From: an uncultured Chloroflexia bacterium
Lineage (GTDB): Bacteria > Chloroflexota > Dehalococcoidia > UBA2979
Direction of reading: 5' to 3'
Assembly (NCBI GenBank): GCA_963728205.1
Contig: CAVSIV010000003.1
Coordinates: 1 to 24,645 of the forward strand
Length of the DNA: 24,645 nucleotides
This document shows positions 578 to 19,519 of this stretch, one piece after another (positions within the stretch are counted from its first letter, which is position 1; each line of letters begins with the position of its first letter). The position numbers and the translations under genes are program-made. The notes under the pieces are model-generated. The model searched no databases. It was given only the letters and a program-made list of their open reading frames with translations, and was not told the DNA's origin.

Positions 578-1993
578 ATGCGCCGACAGATCGCTCGCAG
601 CCTCGCCGTGCTCGCGGCCGCCGCGTCGCTCGTCGCGCTCGGCCTCACCGGCCCCGCGCCCGTCCGCGCGGCGTCGCCGGGCCAGATCGACGGCACGCTG
701 CCCTCGCACGGCGGCGTCGCGGCCGTCACCTGGGGCGGCGGCACTGTCGACGCGCTTGCCTCGGCCGCGTCGCTGCAGGGCTGCGACCTGGCGTCGGCGT
801 GGGTGTTCGTCGGGGGGAATGCCATCGGAGACGTGGTCGGCGCGCCGGCGTTCGTGAACGCCGGCTTCCTCGCGCAGTTCCCCGGCGGCGACATCACCGC
901 GAATACGATCCTCGTCGTGGTGTGCGCGGCGCCGGCGGCGAGCGCGCCCGGCGCGGTGGCGCTCGCGCCGGCCCTCGGGGGCCAGACGTTCGACCGGCCC
1001 GTCGAGCTGGTCGCGTACCCGGGCAACCGCTGGCTCGTCGTGCAGCAGGACGGCGCGATCCTGCTCGTAAACCACGACGGGGGCGGACAGAGCACGTTCC
1101 TCGACCTCACCGGCCGGGTGCGCCGCTCCGGGAACGAGGAGGGGCTGCTCAGCGCCGCCCTTGACCCGGCGTTCGCCTCGAACGGATACGTCTGGATCTA
1201 CTACTCGGTGGCGAGTGGCGACCGCCGCCAGCGGCTCGCGCGCTTCACGGTGCAGGGCGACGTCGCCGACACGGCGAGCGAGCTCGCGGTGCTCGAGCAG
1301 GCCGAGCCATACAGCAACCACAACGGCGGCGCGATCCGCTTCGGGCCCGACGGCATGCTCTACCTCGGCATCGGCGACGGCGGCTCGGGCGGCGACCCGC
1401 AGGGGAACGGCCAGAACACCGACACGCTCCTCGGCTCGATCATCCGCATCGACGTCCGCAACGCGAGTGCCTCCGCGCCGTACGTCGTGCCGTCGAACAA
1501 CCCGTTCGTGGGGAGGTCGGGCGCCGACGAAATCTGGGCCTACGGCCTGCGCAACCCGTGGCGGATGGCCTTCGACCCGCAGACCGGCAAGCTGTGGGCG
1601 GGCGACGTCGGCCAGGACGCATGGGAGGAGATCGACGTCATCACCAGCGGTGCGAACTACGGGTGGAACCGCCTCGAGGGCACGCACTGCTACCAGTCGG
1701 GCTGCTCGTCCTCGGGGACGACGCTGCCGGTGGCGGAGTACTCGCACGCGGACGGCTGCTCGGTCATCGGCGGCGTGGTCGCGCACAACGCATCGGTGCC
1801 CGCGGTGAACGGCGACTACCTTTACAGCGACGAGTGCAGCGGGCACCTCTGGGCGATTGACGCGTCCGCGCCGGGCACGCCGGTGGAGGTCGGCCAGCTC
1901 GACGGCAACCCCACGTCGTTCGCGACCGACGCCGCGGGGCACGTCTACGTCGTGCAGTTCGGCGGGCCGGTGATGCAGGTGGTGAGCAAGTAG
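578..1993 (+). CDS. Secreted glucose/sorbosone dehydrogenase (GSDH, PQQ-dependent sugar dehydrogenase family) beta-propeller with an extra N-terminal two-Cys domain
   Basis: SD GGGGAGGG before ATG 578; signal peptide MRRQIARSLAVLAAAASLVALG...VRA; family motifs EEGLL, NHNGGAIRFGPDGMLY, GDGG, GLRNPWR, DVGQ..WEEID, GANYGW. Confidence 0.9.
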   Translation: MRRQIARSLAVLAAAASLVALGLTGPAPVRAASPGQIDGTLPSHGGVAAVTWGGGTVDALASAASLQGCDLASAWVFVGGNAIGDVVGAPAFVNAGFLAQFPGGDITANTILVVVCAAPAASAPGAVALAPALGGQTFDRPVELVAYPGNRWLVVQQDGAILLVNHDGGGQSTFLDLTGRVRRSGNEEGLLSAALDPAFASNGYVWIYYSVASGDRRQRLARFTVQGDVADTASELAVLEQAEPYSNHNGGAIRFGPDGMLYLGIGDGGSGGDPQGNGQNTDTLLGSIIRIDVRNASASAPYVVPSNNPFVGRSGADEIWAYGLRNPWRMAFDPQTGKLWAGDVGQDAWEEIDVITSGANYGWNRLEGTHCYQSGCSSSGTTLPVAEYSHADGCSVIGGVVAHNASVPAVNGDYLYSDECSGHLWAIDASAPGTPVEVGQLDGNPTSFATDAAGHVYVVQFGGPVMQVVSK

Positions 1994-2138
1994 CGGGCGC
2001 GCGCGACGGCGTCGACGGCCGCGATGGATATGACGGAGCGCGATATCGTCCGTCGCCGCGTTTGAGCGCACGGCGGTCGATGGGGTATCAACAGGGGGCC
2101 ACCGGCGGGGGAAGCAGTCGGCGGCACGCCGCCGTGAG

Positions 2139-3074
2139 ATGGTGCCCGTGCACGTCCCCTCGCCGCGCGCGCAGCGGCTGATCGCCGCGCTCGCCGTGCT
2201 CACGCTCGTCTCCGCCGTCGCGCGCAGCGCGCGGGGCCACGCCGTGCTCGCCGCCGTGGACGCGAGCGCGACGCCGGTCGCGGCCGTCGCGACCCTCACG
2301 ACCCTCACGACCCCCACGACCCCCACGGCCCCCACGGCCCCCACGGCCACCGTCGCACCGACCCTCGCGCCGATGCCGGTCGCGACGCCGTGGGGCACCG
2401 GCGGGCTCGACCTCCGCCTCGTCGACAAGGACCACGCGCTTCCGCCCGACGACGTGCCGCAGGATCTCGTCGCGCTCGCCGACGCCCGCGTTGCGCCCGG
2501 CTACGCGCCGGTGGAGCTGCGCGCCGGCGCGGCCGACGCGCTGGAGCGGCTGCTGCGGGCCGCGTCGGATGCGGGCATCGAGCTGCGCGCGCGCTCCGGC
2601 TACCGCTCGTACGCGACGCAGCAGGTGACGTTCGAATACTGGGTCGGCGTGTACGGCGAGACGCAGGCGCGACGGGAGAGCGCCGAGGCGGGGCACAGCG
2701 AGCACCAGCTCGGCACGGCCGTCGACCTCACGAGCGCGTCGGTCGCGTGGGACCTCACGCAGGACTTCGGCGAGACGCCGGAGGGGCAATGGCTTGCCGC
2801 GCGCGTCGCCGACTTCGGGTTCGCCCTCTCCTACCCGGCCGGCGCCGAGGCCGTCACCGGCTACGAATACGAGCCGTGGCACATCCGGTACCTCGGCCGG
2901 CGCGACGCTGCGGGCTGGCGGCTGACGGGGCTGCCGCTGGAGACCTACCTGGAGCGGGCGCACGCGCCGCTCGTGCCCCCGGCGACCTCGACGCCCACCC
3001 CGACGCCGACGCCCACCCCGACCCCGACGCCGACCTCAGCGACGCCGGCCCCGGCCGCGGGCGAGACCCTGTGA
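2139..3074 (+). CDS. D-alanyl-D-alanine carboxypeptidase, peptidase M15B (VanY/LdcB-like), exported, with Thr/Pro-rich linkers
   Basis: SGYRS, Zn motif SEHQLGTAVD (SxHxxGxAxD) and EPWH; N-terminal hydrophobic segment; PT-repeat tail. Start approximate. Confidence 0.9.
   Translation: MVPVHVPSPRAQRLIAALAVLTLVSAVARSARGHAVLAAVDASATPVAAVATLTTLTTPTTPTAPTAPTATVAPTLAPMPVATPWGTGGLDLRLVDKDHALPPDDVPQDLVALADARVAPGYAPVELRAGAADALERLLRAASDAGIELRARSGYRSYATQQVTFEYWVGVYGETQARRESAEAGHSEHQLGTAVDLTSASVAWDLTQDFGETPEGQWLAARVADFGFALSYPAGAEAVTGYEYEPWHIRYLGRRDAAGWRLTGLPLETYLERAHAPLVPPATSTPTPTPTPTPTPTPTSATPAPAAGETL
2289..2351 (+). repeat. In-frame 9-bp tandem repeat (7 degenerate copies of ACG(A/G)CCC(T/C)C) encoding a Thr/Pro linker
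   Basis: gcgaccctc acgaccctc acgaccccc acgaccccc acggccccc acggccccc acggccacc. Confidence 0.8.
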
Positions 3075-4299
3075 TGCGCGCGCGCGGCCTCCGCGCCGCC
3101 GCCGTCGCTGCCGCGATGGTGGCGCTCGTCGCGCTGCTCGCGCACGTCGCCGCCACCCCGGCCCGCGCGGCCGATGGGCCGCTCGCGACCGGCAGCGTCG
3201 CCGTCGTCAGCGCGGACGGCGACTGCCTGCGACTGCGCGCCGCGCCCGGGCTCGCCGCTACCGAGTTGAGCTGCCTGCCGCAGGGGGCGCGCGTCGACGT
3301 GCTCGACGGCACCGTCACCCAGGACGGCTACCGCTGGCAGCACGTCGCGTTCGGCGCACTCAGCGGCTGGGCCGCTGATACCTACCTCATCCCCGAGAGC
3401 GCGCTCCCGCCGCCGCCGACGCCAATCCCGGGAGACGGCACCGTGCAGCTCTTCGTGCCGGCGCCCGCCGGCACCGAGTGGCAGATCGCGGCGGGCTACA
3501 ACACCGCGACGCACTCGGCGGCCGACGGCGGCGACCCGTACGCGATCGACATCGTCCGTACCGACGCCGCGACCGCAGGGACGCCCGTGCTGGCCCCGCT
3601 CGACGGCACGGTCGCGTGGCTGGACCCCGATTGCCTGGAGCTCACCGATCGCGCCGGCATGCGCGTCCTCCTCTGCCACTTCTTCCACGACCCCGGGGTG
3701 CACGACGGCCTCCCGGTCGCGCGCGGGCAGCGCCTCGGGACCGTCGCGCCGGCGGGACAGGCGGGGAACAACGGGCTCGCGCACATCCACGTGGCGGTGC
3801 ACTACGACCACGTGAACGGCGGCGTCACGGTGCCCCTCGCGGGCGCGTATGCGATGGAAGGGACGGCGCTGCCGGCGGTGACCACCTTCAACGCGTACGC
3901 CGGCACGACGTTCCGTTCGACGAACGTCCCGCCGGGCGCGACGCAGCCCGTCGTCGAGGGCACGACCGCGCCCACGCCGGCCCCCACTTCCGCCGCGACC
4001 CCCGTGACGACGCCCACGCCGGCGCCCCGACCCCCACGCCGCCTCCGCCGCCGTCGCTGAGCCAGCCGCTGCCGCCGAGCGGCTTCGCCGGCGTCGTCTT
4101 TAGCGGCGGGACGAACGAGCAGCTGGTCGCCGCCGCCGGGTGCCCGGCCGCAGAGCTGGCGTTCTGGACGTTCGACCAGGGCGAGATGGTCACGTACCTG
4201 CCGGGCACGACCGTCGCCATCGTGAACGCACGGTGGGACGCGCTCTTCGCCGCCGGCATCCCGGACCACACGATCCTGATCGGGCGCTGCGGCAGCTGA
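3074..4299 (+). CDS. Secreted SH3 + M23 metallopeptidase with a C-terminal two-Cys domain; apparent -1 frameshift near 4025-4030 (as sequenced it stops at 4060)
   Basis: ATG overlaps the previous stop (TGATG); signal peptide ending ARA; SH3b-like CLRLRAAPG...W..V....SGW; M23-like H...YAID and HIH. After the TP linker the coding-like reading continues in the 3478..4299 frame (TPTPPPPPSLSQPLPPSGFAGVVF...GRCGS*). Confidence 0.8.
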
Positions 4300-4386: not shown

Positions 4387-4548
4387 GGGCGAGCTGCCGT
4401 TTCCACCACGGTCGTCGTGATTATTCGCGACGTTTGGACCCGCCGGTCGTGACCTACGTCCGTGGGTGCGTCCCGGGACGCTCCCTAGTCTTTCAAACGT
4501 GGTTGGTACGTGTGCTCACAATCACAAGTGAAACGGGAGGAACCGAAA

Positions 4549-5103
4549 GTGTCCAGCATCAAGAGGTACATCTGGATCGCCGCCGTGCTCGCCGGAGTCA
4601 TCTTCGTCGCCACGGGTGCGGTCATGCTCGTCCAGGGCGCGAACGCGAAGGCGGCCGTGAAGGACGGACTGGTTCAGGAGAACGTGACGATCGGCGCCGA
4701 CGCGGCGCTGTTCGGCCAGCAGAGCGGCGTTCTCGTCGACAGCGCGGCCACGGCCAAGCTGCAGGCGGACATCATCCACTTCCACAGCCTCGCCGGCGAA
4801 GACAAGCAGGTTGTGGACGGCAAGATCGTGGGCGGCACGCCGTACTCCGGCATGAAGCGTGACGACCCGGCGCGAGCGACGTACCTCGACGGTGTCACGC
4901 TCCGCTCGTCCCTGATGCTTGCCTACATGGGCTTCAAGGTTGGCGACCTGGTCATGGGCCTCGGCGCCGCCTTCATCCTCATCGGCGTCAGCACGGCTGG
5001 CCTGCTGGCCCCGGCGCTCTACTGGGCACCGCGCCCGGCGACGGAGGCCGAGGCTGAGACCGCAAAGGCGGCGCGCCAGGCTCTGGCCACCACCGAAGGT
5101 TAA
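4549..5103 (+). CDS. Conserved two-TM membrane protein of unknown function
   Basis: SD GGGAGG at 4535-4540, GTG at 4549; N-terminal TM (IWIAAVLAGVIFVATGAVML) and C-terminal TM; segment YSGMKRDDPARATYLDGVTLRSSL resembles, from recall, an actinobacterial family often labelled 'aromatic ring-opening dioxygenase LigA'. Confidence 0.8.
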   Translation: MSSIKRYIWIAAVLAGVIFVATGAVMLVQGANAKAAVKDGLVQENVTIGADAALFGQQSGVLVDSAATAKLQADIIHFHSLAGEDKQVVDGKIVGGTPYSGMKRDDPARATYLDGVTLRSSLMLAYMGFKVGDLVMGLGAAFILIGVSTAGLLAPALYWAPRPATEAEAETAKAARQALATTEG

Positions 5104-5185: not shown

Positions 5186-5216
5186 GAGGAGCCCGCCGCA
5201 AGGCGGGCTTCTCTCT
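5186..5216 (+). terminator. Likely intrinsic terminator
   Basis: AGCCCGCC-GCAA-GGCGGGCT hairpin (GNRA loop, 5190-5209) followed by TCTCTCT, downstream of the stop at 5103. Confidence 0.65.
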
Positions 5217-10751: not shown

Positions 10752-11951
10752 GTGACAGGGCGCGCACGCCTCGCCGTGCTCACGCTCGCCGCGCTGGCCG
10801 CGCTCGCCGCCGCCGCGTGCGGCGCGACGGGTGCCGGCCCTGCGCCGTCCGTCACCCCGTCTCGGTCGGCTGCCAACACGCACACACAGGGGTCCGGCAC
10901 CGCGGTCGCGTCGGGACGCGCGCAGCCCAGGTCGACCACCGCCGCCGCGCCCGGCGTTTCCTCTTCAACCGCCTCGCGACCGACCCCCACCGCGACCGCC
11001 GCGCCGGCCGAGACGCCGGTCGGTACGCCGCGATCCACCGCCGCCACGGTTGCGCCCTCCTCGCCGTCCCCCGCACCCGCCGCCGCGAGCACACCCCGCC
11101 CCACCGCGACCGCCGCCGCCGCGTCCGCCAACGACTGGACCGACGCCGTCGATCCCACCCGCATCCCCGTCGGCGACGGCAGGGTGTCGAGCACGCCGCG
11201 CGTCGGCTACGTCGACTCCTGCACGACCACCTTCCGCGGCGGCGGAGCCGAGCACGCCGGCGCCTGGCTCGACGCCGCCGCCGGCACCTGGAACCTCGAG
11301 ACGAAGATCTCCGTGGCCGGCGAGCGCTACTGGTCGAACGCCACGTTCAACGCCCACGTGCAGGGCGCAACCCGTGTGATCACGAGCGTTGACCTGCCCG
11401 TCGGGGTGCCGACGGGCACGTTCCCGATCGCGCGTTCCGACCCGGCCTTCCAGTTCGACCGCAACCCGAATGCCATCGCCACGCAGTCGGTCACCTACCA
11501 GCTGCCGGCGAACCCGGTCGCCGCAGCCTCGCCCTCGTGCACCGGTCTCGGCCCAATCGGGATCACCACCGACGGCGTCTTCCTCTACAACGCGCTGGAC
11601 GACGGCGGCCGCGACGCCGGTGCGCACGAGGTCCAGGACAGCTGCCAGGGCCACCCCGACGGCCGCGAGCGATACCACTACCACTCGATCTCGGGGTGCC
11701 TGGAGTCGCCGCAGCCGGGGACATCGATGCTCGTCGGCTACGCCCTGGACGGCTACGGCATCTACGCGGAGTGGAACGCCGCGGGTCACCTGCCGACGAA
11801 CGCGGACCTCGACGCCTGCCACGGTCGCACCAGCACCATCACGTGGGACGGCGCGCCGCGTTCCATCTACCACTACGACGTGACGCTCGAGTACCCGTAC
11901 ACGGTCGGCTGCTACCACGGCGCGCCGATCCCGGCGAACGGCCCGCGTTAG
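10752..11951 (+). CDS. YHYH-domain lipoprotein with a long Ser/Thr/Pro linker
   Basis: Lipobox-like LAAAAC-G; GPIGITTDGV, DSCQGHP...YHYH, VGYALDGYGIY, DLDACHG, YHY....YPY. Confidence 0.88.
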   Translation: MTGRARLAVLTLAALAALAAAACGATGAGPAPSVTPSRSAANTHTQGSGTAVASGRAQPRSTTAAAPGVSSSTASRPTPTATAAPAETPVGTPRSTAATVAPSSPSPAPAAASTPRPTATAAAASANDWTDAVDPTRIPVGDGRVSSTPRVGYVDSCTTTFRGGGAEHAGAWLDAAAGTWNLETKISVAGERYWSNATFNAHVQGATRVITSVDLPVGVPTGTFPIARSDPAFQFDRNPNAIATQSVTYQLPANPVAAASPSCTGLGPIGITTDGVFLYNALDDGGRDAGAHEVQDSCQGHPDGRERYHYHSISGCLESPQPGTSMLVGYALDGYGIYAEWNAAGHLPTNADLDACHGRTSTITWDGAPRSIYHYDVTLEYPYTVGCYHGAPIPANGPR

Positions 11952-14609: not shown

Positions 14610-15704
14610 CTAGCCGTACCGGTTCCACGCGAGCGAAAGACCGACCGCCGCCGTCGCGAGCAGGGCGCCCAGCGCGACGAACGCGAAGCTCAGCTCGACG
14701 TGCTCGTGTTGCAGTGTGACCTCGGAGGGGAGGTGGTGGAAGACGTCGACCAGCTCGCTCGCGTCCTGTGCGCGGTGGTACGTGCCGCCGGTGGCGTCCG
14801 CGATGCCCTGCAGCGTCTGCTCGTCGATCAGCAGCGCCGACCGCCCCCCGCCGCCGAAGTTGCCGCCGCCGAAGTTGCCGCCGCCGAAGCCGAAGCTCCG
14901 ACCGCCGCCGGCGAAGCGGCCGCCGAAGACGTCGCCCCCCAGCTGCTGCTGGGAGCACGCGAGCGGCGCGCCCTCCGTCGTCCCGAAACCGATCGTGTAG
15001 ATGCGCACGCGGCGCGCGGCCGCCTGCTGCGCGGCCACCAGCGGGTCGACGCCCTGCGTCGTCGCGCCGTCCGTGAGCAGCACGACAATGTCGGGCTGGT
15101 AGCCGCCGGCCGCCGCCCCGGCCGCGGGCGTCGCGACGTCGAGTCCGGTTCGCGGGACGCCCGGGTTCACCGCCGCGATGGCGTCGACCGCACGCAGCTC
15201 CGCCGTCCCGACGGCCGTACCGCGCCCCGTGGTGAAGCCATCGATCGCGGCGACGAGCGCCTCGCGGTCGGTCGTCGGCGGCACCACCAGCTGCGCGATG
15301 CCCGAGAACGCCACGATGCCGATGCGCGTCCCGGCCGGCTGGTTCCGCACGAAGGTGCGCGCGACGTCCTGCGCGACCGCCAGCCGGTTCGGCGGCACGT
15401 CCGTGGAGCACATCGACAGCGACACGTCGAGCGCGAGGATCACCGTCGTGCGGCTGGTCGGCACGACCACCGACGCCTGCGGCCGCGCGGCGGCGACCGC
15501 GAGGCTCAGGAGCGCGGCGAGGAACAGCGCGAACGGCAGCCGCCGCCGCCAGCGCGACTGCGCCGGCAGCGCCTCGCGGATCAGCGCGAGGCTCGCGTAG
15601 CGCACCGCGAAGCGCCGGCGCCGGCGGCGCAGCAGGAGGTACGCGCCGAGCACGAGGGGCGCCACGAGCAGGAGGAAGAGCGCGGAGGGCCAGGCGAAGG
15701 TCAT
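14610..15704 (-). CDS. BatA-like membrane-anchored VWA domain protein with a Gly/Phe-rich insert
   Basis: MTFAWPSALFLLL N-terminal TMs, LARP-like motif, MIDAS DVSLSM, LLTDG, C-terminal TM. Confidence 0.9.
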   Translation of the reverse strand: MTFAWPSALFLLLVAPLVLGAYLLLRRRRRRFAVRYASLALIREALPAQSRWRRRLPFALFLAALLSLAVAAARPQASVVVPTSRTTVILALDVSLSMCSTDVPPNRLAVAQDVARTFVRNQPAGTRIGIVAFSGIAQLVVPPTTDREALVAAIDGFTTGRGTAVGTAELRAVDAIAAVNPGVPRTGLDVATPAAGAAAGGYQPDIVVLLTDGATTQGVDPLVAAQQAAARRVRIYTIGFGTTEGAPLACSQQQLGGDVFGGRFAGGGRSFGFGGGNFGGGNFGGGGRSALLIDEQTLQGIADATGGTYHRAQDASELVDVFHHLPSEVTLQHEHVELSFAFVALGALLATAAVGLSLAWNRYG

Positions 15705-15706
15705 GG

Positions 15707-16708
15707 CTAGGGGACCCTCCCGAACCAGCGCATCGTGAGACCCGCACCGACGACCAGCAGCAGCATGGCCACGACCGCGACGAGCGGCGTCGCCTCCAGC
15801 TCTTCCCCGCGCACGGCGAGCTGCAGATCGATCCTGCCGTACACCTGCTTGAGCTTCGCCGCGTCCTCTGCCCGGAAGTACGTGCCGCCCGTGGTGTCGG
15901 CGATCTTCGACAGCAGCGGCTCGTTCAGCGCCGTCGCGACCTGGTAGCCCTGGATGTCGAGCGTCGCGCCGTCGGGGCTGCCGAGCCCGATCGGGAAGAC
16001 GCGCACGCCGGCGTTGGCCGCGACCTGCGCGACACCGAGCGGGTCGACGCGCGACGTGTCCTCGCCGTCGGAGAGCAGCACGATCACCGCCGACCCGTAG
16101 TAGCCGATGTTCGTCGAAGCCGGGTCGGGCGCGGCCGTCGCCGTGGCCGTCCCGCTCGCGAGCGCAATCGGGTGGCCGGCGATCGCGCCGAGCGACGAGA
16201 ACATGCCCTCGCTCAGCGAGGTCCCGCCCTGCGGCTCGATGCGGTCGATGGCCGCGAGCACATCGCCCTGGTCGTTCGTCGGCTGCTGCAGCACGAACGC
16301 GCTGTCGCTGAAGGCGACCACGCCGATGCGCACCGACGACGGCTGATCGCGCACGAAGGCGTCGGCGGCCTGCTTCGCCGCCGCCATGCGCGTGGGCGCG
16401 AGATCGGTCGCCTCCATGCTCGTCGAGACGTCGAACGCGAGGATCACGGTGCCCTCGCGGTGGGGGAGGGCGACGACGACGGTGGGGCGTGCGAGCGCGG
16501 CGAGCATCAGCGCGAGCGCGGCGAGGAAGAGCGCGGGCGCCAGGTGACGGCGCCAGGCGGCACGCCGGCCACCGCCGCCGTCGGTGACGCGCAGCGGCCC
16601 GAGCGCGGGCGCGGCCGCGGCGCGCCGCCGCATCAGCCAGACGTAGCCGGCGGCCAGCACGGGCACGAGCAGCAGCGAGAGCAGCATCGCCGGCCACGTG
16701 AACGACAT
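15707..16708 (-). CDS. BatA-like membrane-anchored VWA domain protein
   Basis: MSFTWPAMLLSLL, ALARP, MIDAS DVSTSM, LLSDGE, C-terminal TM; ATG overlaps the DUF58 stop. Confidence 0.92.
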   Translation of the reverse strand: MSFTWPAMLLSLLLVPVLAAGYVWLMRRRAAAAPALGPLRVTDGGGGRRAAWRRHLAPALFLAALALMLAALARPTVVVALPHREGTVILAFDVSTSMEATDLAPTRMAAAKQAADAFVRDQPSSVRIGVVAFSDSAFVLQQPTNDQGDVLAAIDRIEPQGGTSLSEGMFSSLGAIAGHPIALASGTATATAAPDPASTNIGYYGSAVIVLLSDGEDTSRVDPLGVAQVAANAGVRVFPIGLGSPDGATLDIQGYQVATALNEPLLSKIADTTGGTYFRAEDAAKLKQVYGRIDLQLAVRGEELEATPLVAVVAMLLLVVGAGLTMRWFGRVP

Positions 16709-17572
16709 CAGCGGATCCGTCGTTTCCGCTGGCCGGCCATGCGCACGAGCGCCGCGACGAGGTCGTCCTCGGTGGAGAGGTCGAACGGGTCGACGCCGGC
16801 GCGGCGCAGGCTCGCATCGAGCTGCGCCTCGCGCGCGCCGGCCAGCTCCGCGAGCCGGGCGCGCAGCCGCGGGTCGCTCGCGTCGACGAGCAGCTGCTCG
16901 CCGGTCTCGGAGTCCTCGAGCACGATCAGACCGGCGTCGGGCAGCTCGACCTCCCGCGGATCCCACAGCCGGATCGCCACCACGTCATGCCGCCGGCTCA
17001 GCATCGGCATCAGCCGCTCCCAGCCGGGCTCGCTCATGAAGTCGGAGACGACGAAGACCAGCGAGCGTCGCTTGATCGTGTTCAGCGCGACCTGCAGCAG
17101 ACCCGCCAGGTCGGTCGGGCCGTCGCTCGCCGGCGCGGGGCGCATCAGGTCGCGCGCGAGGCGCAGCACCTGGATGCGCCCGCCGCGCGGCGGGATCGTG
17201 CGCTCCACCGCGTTGTTGTAGAGGATCGCGCCCACGCGGTTGCCGCGACGCGTGAGCAGCCGCGCCAGCGCGGTCACCACGTCGGTCAGCACCCGCGCCT
17301 TCGGGCGGTCCTCCGGGCCGAACGCCATCGACGGCGAGCGGTCGAGCAGCATCCACGCCGTGAGCTCGCGGTCCTCGCGGTACTCGCGTACGTACGGCGT
17401 GTCCATGCGCGCCGTCACGTTCCAGTCGATGTGCCGCGCGTCGTCCTCGGGCTGGTACTCGCGTATGTCGGCGAGATCGACGCCCGCACCGTAGAAGAGC
17501 GTGCGGTAGTCGCCCTGCAGCAGGCCGTCGAGCCGCCGCAGCACCTGCCAGTCGAGGCGGTGCAGGATCTGC

Positions 17573-18622
<1,050 letters not shown>

Positions 18623-18652
18623 GGCGCGCTCCTGCTCGCTGTCGTGGCTGGG

Positions 18653-19519
18653 TTAGCGGGGCGGCCCGGCGGCGCCGCCGCCGGCGGCGTTCAGCGGGAC
18701 CGCGAAGCCGATGCCGCTGAACGAGCCCTGGTCGCTCGGGTTGGCGAGGGCCGTGACGATGCCGATCACGCGCCCCTTCGCGTCCAGCAGCGGCCCCCCG
18801 GAGTTGCCCGGGTTGACCGCCGCGTCGAACTGGATGAGGCCGGTGAGGTTGGTGCCTCCGCCCGGGCGCGGCACCGTGCGGTCGAGCCCGGAGATCACGC
18901 CGGCGCTGAGCGACGCCGCGAGGCCCAGCGGGTTGCCGACGGCGAACGTCGCGTCCCCAATCTGCAGCCCGCCCGACCCGGCGAGCACTGCCGGCACGAT
19001 CACCGACGGGCCCGTGGCCGGGCGCAGCACGGCGAGGTCCTGCTCGGGCTGCTGGCTGACCACGGTGGCAGCCGACTCGGTGCCGTCGGCGAAGGTGACG
19101 GTGATGGCGCGGGCGCCGTCGACGACGTGGTTCGCCGTGAGGATCGATCCGTCGGCGTTCACGATCACGCCGCTGCCGACACCATGTCCGTCGGCGCGCT
19201 GCTCGTTGCCGGTGGTGCTGATGTAGACGAGCGACGGGAGGATCGTCTTGAACGCCTGCACCGACGCGGGCGGCGTGGCGGTGGTCGAGGCGATCGCGGA
19301 GGCGACGGCGGCGTTGATGTCGCCGGCGCGCGCGGGCGGGGCGGCGTCGAGGTGGAGGGTGGTGAAGAGGACGAGGCCCACGAGGGAGCCGAGCAGGCCC
19401 AGCGCAAGCGGGCCGAGCGAGCGCCAGCGGACCGGGGACGCGCGGCGCGTGCGTCGGCGTCGACCGCAGCGTCGGCGGGCGGCGAGCGGCGGGGCGTCAC
19501 CGGTGCACCGTCGCGGCAC
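18653..19519 (-). CDS. Membrane-anchored trypsin-like serine protease (S1C/HtrA-type, no PDZ domain); start uncertain
   Basis: One TM, then GSG, catalytic TANH, DLAVL, IQFDAAVNPGNSGGPL; ends right after the protease domain. Confidence 0.9.
   Translation of the reverse strand: MPRRCTGDAPPLAARRRCGRRRRTRRASPVRWRSLGPLALGLLGSLVGLVLFTTLHLDAAPPARAGDINAAVASAIASTTATPPASVQAFKTILPSLVYISTTGNEQRADGHGVGSGVIVNADGSILTANHVVDGARAITVTFADGTESAATVVSQQPEQDLAVLRPATGPSVIVPAVLAGSGGLQIGDATFAVGNPLGLAASLSAGVISGLDRTVPRPGGGTNLTGLIQFDAAVNPGNSGGPLLDAKGRVIGIVTALANPSDQGSFSGIGFAVPLNAAGGGAAGPPR

Follow-up and report, generated by a model that had tools for sequence, protein, structure and literature searches.

A candidate cell-envelope tethering domain shared by exported proteins of a Dehalococcoidia lineage

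Two unrelated exported enzymes encoded in a 24,645-nucleotide stretch of DNA from an uncultured Chloroflexia bacterium (GTDB lineage Dehalococcoidia, UBA2979; contig CAVSIV010000003.1 of assembly GCA_963728205.1), hereafter the window, share a domain of ~78 amino acids (aa) that matches no named family. One copy stands near the N-terminus of a glucose/sorbosone dehydrogenase (GSDH)-family protein, the other at the C-terminus of a protein with SH3 and M23 peptidase domains. The window is a contig of a 4.1-Mb genome of ~72% G+C. Comparison of the two copies with their relatives in this and other genomes indicates that the domain recurs on exported proteins of many kinds and that, in the protein families tested, it and lipid or membrane-tail anchors exclude one another. 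On this pattern, the domain is probably a portable, non-covalent tether to the cell envelope.

A domain shared by unrelated exported proteins

A preliminary description of the window had proposed that the segments at 698-925 and 4069-4290 are copies of one ~75-aa, two-cysteine domain carried by two unrelated exported enzymes. Both segments lie at these coordinates with the translation that was quoted, and their resemblance is real: local alignment gives a score of 81, against a mean of 28 and a maximum of 65 for shuffled sequences (none of 10,000 reached 81), and BLASTP aligns the copies across 72 aa at 38% identity (E 1e-6). The description had named as grounds against itself a non-significant pairwise alignment, a match to a characterised Pfam domain and homologues that are mostly cytoplasmic; we found none of these. 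Details of the shared pattern needed adjustment. In the alignment, the first cysteine of one copy stands a few columns away from that of the other, and the Asp of copy 1 in column 49 is atypical of the family, which has Tyr there (82% Y).

Copy 1 (686-925, +), defined by alignment, hidden Markov model (HMM) and predicted fold, was correctly located but begins ~4 residues earlier than first placed; it belongs to subtype A (Cys33 and a C-terminal Cys80). Its host gene (578-1993, +) encodes a 471-aa exported protein resembling pyrroloquinoline quinone-dependent glucose/sorbosone dehydrogenases (PF07995, E 7e-47; TIGR03606, E 3e-25, below cut-off), in which a signal peptide, the domain, a short linker and the catalytic part (962-1990, +; PF07995) follow one another. 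The N-terminus (578-670, +) reads as a signal peptide ending in an A-x-A type site, and a rule-based scan finds no lipobox cysteine in it. The GSDH linker, described earlier as one of several Pro/Ala/Thr linkers, is just ~12 residues long and Ala/Pro-rich.

Copy 2 (4057-4299, +; HMM E 1e-22), with two cysteines of which the first is shifted, closes the SH3-M23 protein and is followed by Gly-Ser and a stop. The 5' part of this gene (3074-4060, +) encodes a signal peptide, SH3 (~3227-3388, +; SH3_3, E 4e-5), M23 (~3566-3808, +; Peptidase_M23, E 3e-5), both matches being below cut-off, and a Pro/Thr linker; the domains of both hosts are thus as earlier described. The frame opened at 3074 stops at 4060, and copy 2 sits one frame off, in that of 3379-4299, which bears out the frameshifted C-terminus that had been reported. 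Comparison of the frames places the change within the C-rich Pro/Thr linker (4021-4060, +). In the two best same-genus orthologues (L197 and L198; 59% and 57% identity), SH3, M23, linker and domain occupy a single open frame, and a second M23 carrier of the same genome, the paralogue on L021, is likewise divided between frames. Because the orthologues are intact and this second carrier is also split, the frameshift is probably an assembly error rather than the mark of a pseudogene. Several carriers in the assembly appear to be split in the same way (L021:2174-3440; L013:2175-3068; L108:884-4299), which suggests that indel errors are frequent in it.

An HMM iterated over the six-frame translation of the genome until convergence recovered 23 clear copies (weakest E 7e-13), separated by a clean gap from the next match (0.011); a deeper profile adds a divergent tier that raises the total to ~42 copies in 37 open reading frames (ORFs). 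Each of the 23 clear hosts carries one copy, C-terminal in 10 and placed after the signal peptide or between domains in 13. Inspection by eye shows a signal-peptide-like start in all but one of the 23 hosts (20 in frame, two via an upstream frame); signal-peptide and lipobox calls in this study are rule-based or by eye, and on such calls the domain appears to be restricted to exported proteins. About half of the partner regions in these hosts are unannotated, and those named by Pfam are GSDH, M23, S11 carboxypeptidase, SH3, two M10 proteases, chagasin I42, AMIN-like and Big_9. Overall, the partners are wall enzymes (M23, S11, SH3), proteases, AMIN-like modules, and immunoglobulin (Ig) and cadherin-like repeats. 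The idea of a modular domain of exported proteins that lacks a named family is therefore upheld; its supposed task of displaying secreted enzymes fits the enzymes among the hosts but is too narrow, as adhesin-like and Ig-fold proteins are served equally.

AlphaFold confidently predicts a four-stranded β-α-β-β-α-β unit (mean predicted local distance difference test score of 96.5 for copy 1). Structural searches with the domain models returned no clear match: RCK_C/TrkA_C subdomains were among the best matches of both models, with weak scores that are insufficient for homology, and the CWB2 fold was not among the matches listed. Searches of Pfam, NCBIfam and PDB sequences with four alignments likewise yielded no family. 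Low E-values arose solely for a designed protein (4hhu, E 2.5e-4) and for Kelch, whose summed repeats match a 17-residue hairpin, and both were rejected as chance. Conservation falls on aromatic positions (W/Y16, W/Y39, Y49, F56 and F61) and on near-invariant G, A, P and N positions, the latter suggesting a constrained site. Two alternative cysteine pairs co-vary and are nearly always complete, no CxxC motif is present, and copies without any cysteine number 36 in a non-redundant set of 351 and 10 among the 23 of this genome. The co-variation is consistent with a disulfide that is optional and that two of the three subtypes would close; disulfide stabilisation, as first proposed, thus fits two subtypes and fails as a general feature.

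Exchange with lipobox and membrane-tail anchors

If the domain serves as an anchor, proteins that carry it may do without other anchors that their homologues possess. GSDH homologues gave 110 matches in 76 of the 99 genomes of the bacterium's taxonomic family. We examined 74 distinct proteins, drawn from 30 returned loci, 40 regions spread over the ranking and chosen blind to the N-terminus, and further loci, including one (L103) that was added with its domain already known. Sixty-one have a lipobox and lack the domain, eight have the domain and lack a lipobox (one of these, L212, being split across frames), none has both, three are of other kinds and two are truncated; the majority of the family's homologues are thus lipoproteins without the domain. 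The GSDH tree needs five changes of anchor, two of them forced by well-supported branches, and the GSDH carriers use visibly different subtypes of the domain, indicating that it was recruited to this protein more than once.

Proteins with a small Ig-like module, which is present in 68 of the 99 genomes, show a similar pattern. Among 41 distinct proteins of this kind, 31 have a membrane tail, seven have the domain, none has both and three are cut off. The tails (29 called by rule, two by eye) consist of a PxxTGN-like or similar motif, a hydrophobic helix and a basic tail, and one pair of paralogues within the genome of the window, 60% identical, has the tail in one member and the domain in the other. 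The 30 distinct relatives of a 605-aa Ig-rich protein, a set that overlaps the previous one, include 14 with the domain, six with the tail and none with both, besides one that is cut off and one with a divergent copy recognised by eye. Among 357 database carriers, about half of them N-terminally incomplete or uncalled, a C-terminal transmembrane (TM) helix or LPxTG motif occurs in none, and a lipobox is called in five, of which three are apparently false calls; the corresponding genome background, a rough figure, is 93 in 375.

Within the genome itself, ten proteins end in a motif, TM helix and basic tail, the motif being mostly P-x-x-T-G-N-[AG]-G and in one case LPNTG (e.g. L014:8981-9538 (-) and L314:1483-2430 (+)); none of the ten is among the 37 domain ORFs. 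Apart from its non-standard motif, the tail resembles the sorting signals of sortase substrates. One tail-bearing protein has a sortase-domain gene (L014:1212-2099) ~7 kb away, and another sortase-domain protein (P0335) carries a divergent copy of the domain.

Because the domain and the lipid and membrane-tail anchors are mutually exclusive in the tested families, it behaves like an anchor. The surface-anchoring role that the preliminary description had assigned to it is upheld to this extent, as a pattern in the sequences rather than a direct demonstration: the domain appears to exchange with covalent or membrane anchors, replacing them, with exceptions, in homologous proteins.

Several observations weigh against this reading. 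In GSDH, a lipobox and the domain would have to occupy one and the same place at the N-terminus, and a single recombination would eliminate the lipobox irrespective of what the domain does, which could explain part of the exclusion there. Eight of the 30 relatives of the 605-aa protein carry neither anchor. Exceptions to the exclusion exist, mainly in the divergent tier: L130 combines a divergent tandem pair with an LPNTG-TM tail, the subtilisin P0341 and P0023 are probably lipoproteins, and the lipobox of L018 is ambiguous. One copy in the genome (L016) has no visible signal peptide. Finally, murG, which we used to follow peptidoglycan, is present in seven of eight genomes of genus g9 and the domain in only one of the eight; the domain is therefore dispensable and does not track the wall, and its co-loss with peptidoglycan is rejected on account of the same genus. 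The 605-aa Ig-rich protein also lacks ribosomal-protein-like codon use (rank 3198 of 3377 in a test that is poor here, since codon bias is weak in this genome), which leaves its candidacy as an abundant surface-layer (S-layer) protein unsupported.

Distribution and genomic surroundings

A profile search of protein clusters returned 1,653 clusters at 50% identity. Two copies are present in 105 of the top 150 cluster representatives (median linker 22 aa) and three in one; the last copy lies within 20 aa of the C-terminus in 110, and 77 are longer than 1,000 aa. Some carrier proteins have five copies. Cadherin-like and fibronectin-type families, as we take the accessions to mean, are common among the carriers. 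Genome searches, which at this breadth score few candidates per genome, matched the domain in 88 of the 99 genomes of the family, with up to 57 matches in one genome, in 55 of 401 genomes of the class (27/27 in f1, 14/27 in f23 and 11/28, mostly weak, in f16) and in 3 of 300 other genomes of the phylum, all marginal. Seven carriers are named by lineage, three as Dehalococcoidia, three as Chloroflexi or Chloroflexota and one as Thermoflexus. Genus g6 and two other families have giant secreted proteins (open frames to ~5,800 aa) whose C-terminus is a tandem domain pair with a cysteine pair of its own (L068, L069, L072-L074, L078 and L081-L083).

Profile-profile alignment relates the divergent tier to the main family with 98.5% probability, and does so with 96.8% probability for a classic form, 'GWN-L...V.W.YD...W..Y.PG...L..L..G.GYW', to which we give the label GWN. 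Searches located the divergent tier, often as a C-terminal pair, in 79 of 251 genomes of the class and in 25 of 201 of the phylum; it has no match in Pfam or NCBIfam. By these alignments, the domain is part of a broader superfamily, 'GWN…W..Y.PG', that bears no established name and is also found in genomes without murG. The lineage specificity first claimed for it describes the narrow family but not the whole, as the homologous tier runs through class and phylum. A murG match is present in 90 of the 99 family genomes, and the divergent tier in 60 of 106 murG-positive genomes versus 19 of 145 without a murG match, the genomes being kin and so not independent; the murG tally includes an unpublished genome (G321) as one murG-positive, domain-negative entry, and no other result depends on that genome. 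Peptidoglycan alone is an unlikely ligand for the whole superfamily. A tandem pair further matches unnamed ESM Atlas clusters at 0.95-0.96, the commonest known phylum among them being Thermoplasmatota. This archaeal link is a tentative lead from the ESM Atlas only, a protein search having given just 14 hits; archaeal and Dehalococcoides-type surface proteins do carry what looks like such a module. A search of plasmids and phages for the classic GWN pair found no match.

The window holds further genes of interest around the two carriers. Between them lies a gene for a VanY-like D,D-carboxypeptidase (2139-3074, +; PF02557, E 5e-38) with a hydrophobic N-terminus and a Pro/Thr tail but without the domain. 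Its stop codon runs into the beginning of the SH3-M23 gene, to which it is translationally coupled, and the two look like a wall-remodelling pair. No other van-type gene was seen among the window genes scanned. Downstream, a ~185-aa membrane protein with two hydrophobic segments and no Pfam match (4510-5103, +) has lower G+C upstream and is followed by a GC-rich hairpin (~5190-5215). A YHYH-domain protein with a lipobox-like start and a long linker is encoded at 10752-11951 (+), and consecutive genes for a trypsin-like protease, a MoxR AAA ATPase, DUF58 and two BatA-vWA proteins form a Bat-type operon at 14610-19519 (-). Elsewhere in the genomes, a conserved three-gene run (L014:8076-11490 (-) and L285:11071-14534 (+)) encodes a large Ig-rich secreted protein with a C-terminal domain copy, a small Ig protein with a membrane tail and a small protein with a C-terminal divergent domain, and is a candidate surface-layer operon, for which the codon-use result does not favour strong expression. 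Small gene pairs of toxin-antitoxin-like (PIN/antitoxin) type, recognised by eye, are interleaved with the surface-protein cluster (L014:355-762, 3424-4138 and 16129-17813).

The proposed tether, its rivals and known anchors

In the mechanism that we favour, Sec would export the host protein and signal peptidase I would remove its signal peptide, as the N-termini suggest. The domain, predicted to fold as an autonomous alpha/beta unit with a disulfide presumably closed in two of its three subtypes, would then bind a repeated ligand of the envelope through a conserved surface, of which the Y-x-x-G-A-P-x-F-V-N motif and the G-G loop are the probable elements. A flexible Pro/Thr/Ala linker would keep the enzyme or adhesin fastened to the cell surface, and the tether would do the job of the lipobox or sortase-like membrane tail of its sister proteins. 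As ligand, we give roughly the same odds to a glycan of the wall or S-layer as to the S-layer protein itself. In one genome (G020), a Wzz/Wzc-like gene and a polysaccharide pyruvyl transferase (L286:12151-14999 (-)) lie ~18 kb from the large carrier gene; this proximity, seen in that one genome, may point to a pyruvylated polymer as ligand.

Other roles would accommodate parts of these data. A module of carbohydrate-binding type, guiding enzymes and adhesins after their release to polymers outside the cell or to a host's surface and not to the envelope of their own cell, would fit the conserved aromatics and the hydrolase-like and giant cadherin-like partners, and loss of the lipobox would suit an enzyme destined for release; set against a tether, we find this unlikely. 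Still less likely, in our estimation, is a dockerin-like or RCK_C-like docking module whose copies pair in trans, with tandems perhaps pairing in cis, and which has no envelope ligand. The prevalence of two-copy proteins with short linkers, the five copies of some carriers and the weak structural resemblance to RCK_C/TrkA_C speak for it, and RCK_C domains dimerise. As a known family, RCK_C is a cytoplasmic domain that regulates K+ transport. No copy of the domain matches PF02080 (RCK_C/TrkA_C), the five above-cut-off TrkA_C matches in the genome lying elsewhere, and the dockerin-type families give no NCBIfam or Pfam match to the 23 genome copies and no NCBIfam match to the host proteins scanned, the consensus being without Asp-rich calcium loops.

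The common terminal position recalls a signal for secretion or processing, or a built-in chaperone, that export would use or cleave off, as with PEP-CTERM or the C-terminal domain of the type IX secretion system. We hold such a role to be very improbable, in that 13 of the 23 copies in the genome are not C-terminal, some standing right behind the signal peptide or between domains, the domain lacks a TM helix or basic tail, and no dedicated processing gene is evident in the two carrier clusters read. Just as improbable is an inert spacer or stabilising unit, or a redox-active two-cysteine switch: in favour, cysteine pairs are almost always complete, but there are two different pairs, a cysteine-free subtype and no CxxC, the near-invariant G, A, P and N positions suggest a constrained site, and a module taken up repeatedly by unrelated proteins is likely to have a function.

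Among known anchors, an envelope tether of this kind most resembles the SLH (PF00395) and CWB2 (PF04122) modules, which are also portable, stand N- or C-terminally in a wide range of surface proteins and exported enzymes and are joined by low-complexity linkers, here within one monoderm lineage (PMC4973711, PMC6081394). It differs from them in its predicted mixed alpha/beta fold, its optional disulfide, its occurrence as one or two copies rather than three, and the presence of its wider superfamily in genomes without murG. SLH consists of three tandem short helical repeats and binds pyruvylated secondary cell wall polymer. PF00395 matches neither window copy, none of the 23 genome copies and none of the divergent tiers; PF04122 matches neither window copy and none of the 23, and NCBIfam has no match for the 23. 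Since SLH and CWB2 were found in none of the five carrier genomes of the family that were checked (0/5), the anchoring role is vacant there, and the best reading is that the domain works like SLH or CWB2 while belonging to neither. Like lipobox and sortase-type anchors, it fills the same slot in orthologous and paralogous proteins; unlike these covalent or membrane anchors with their short motifs, it is folded, soluble and without a TM helix, and its frequent occurrence away from the C-terminus and the lack of C-terminal TM or LPxTG sequences among the 357 carriers set it apart from C-terminal sorting signals of the LPxTG or PEP-CTERM type. A preprint on Tepidiformales reports a new class of S-layer proteins, along with many novel domains for anchoring that other surface proteins also carry (bioRxiv 10.1101/2024.05.28.596244). 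We found this domain described neither in its main text nor in searches of the open-access full-text literature, and Figures S7-S8 and Table S2 of the preprint might contain it. What appears to be new here is the exchange of anchors, together with the subdivision by cysteine pattern, the link to a superfamily and the independence from peptidoglycan.

Besides peptidoglycan, Tepidiforma has an S-layer, either face of which bears complexes that are as yet unexplained; peptidoglycan was lost in the orders that branched off later (PMC10284905). A broader proposal, tentative and on balance doubtful, is that the domain exemplifies an unrecognised, peptidoglycan-independent tether superfamily of Chloroflexota and some archaea (Thermoplasmatota), an exported RCK_C-like fold that clips enzymes and giant adhesins onto an S-layer lattice or glycan. 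If true, it could account for the complexes on both faces of the Tepidiforma S-layer and could explain surface display in Dehalococcoidia that lost peptidoglycan.

We know of essentially no description of how exported proteins are retained at the surface of monoderm Chloroflexota, especially Dehalococcoidia with or without peptidoglycan. In this lineage, a single small domain, which a genome may attach to as many as dozens of its exported proteins, marks the surface proteome, wall enzymes and giant adhesins included, and naturally occurring pairs of proteins that are nearly identical except for the anchor are ready material for complementation. If the ligand is not peptidoglycan, the domain would point to a new class of envelope receptor, possibly common to archaea.

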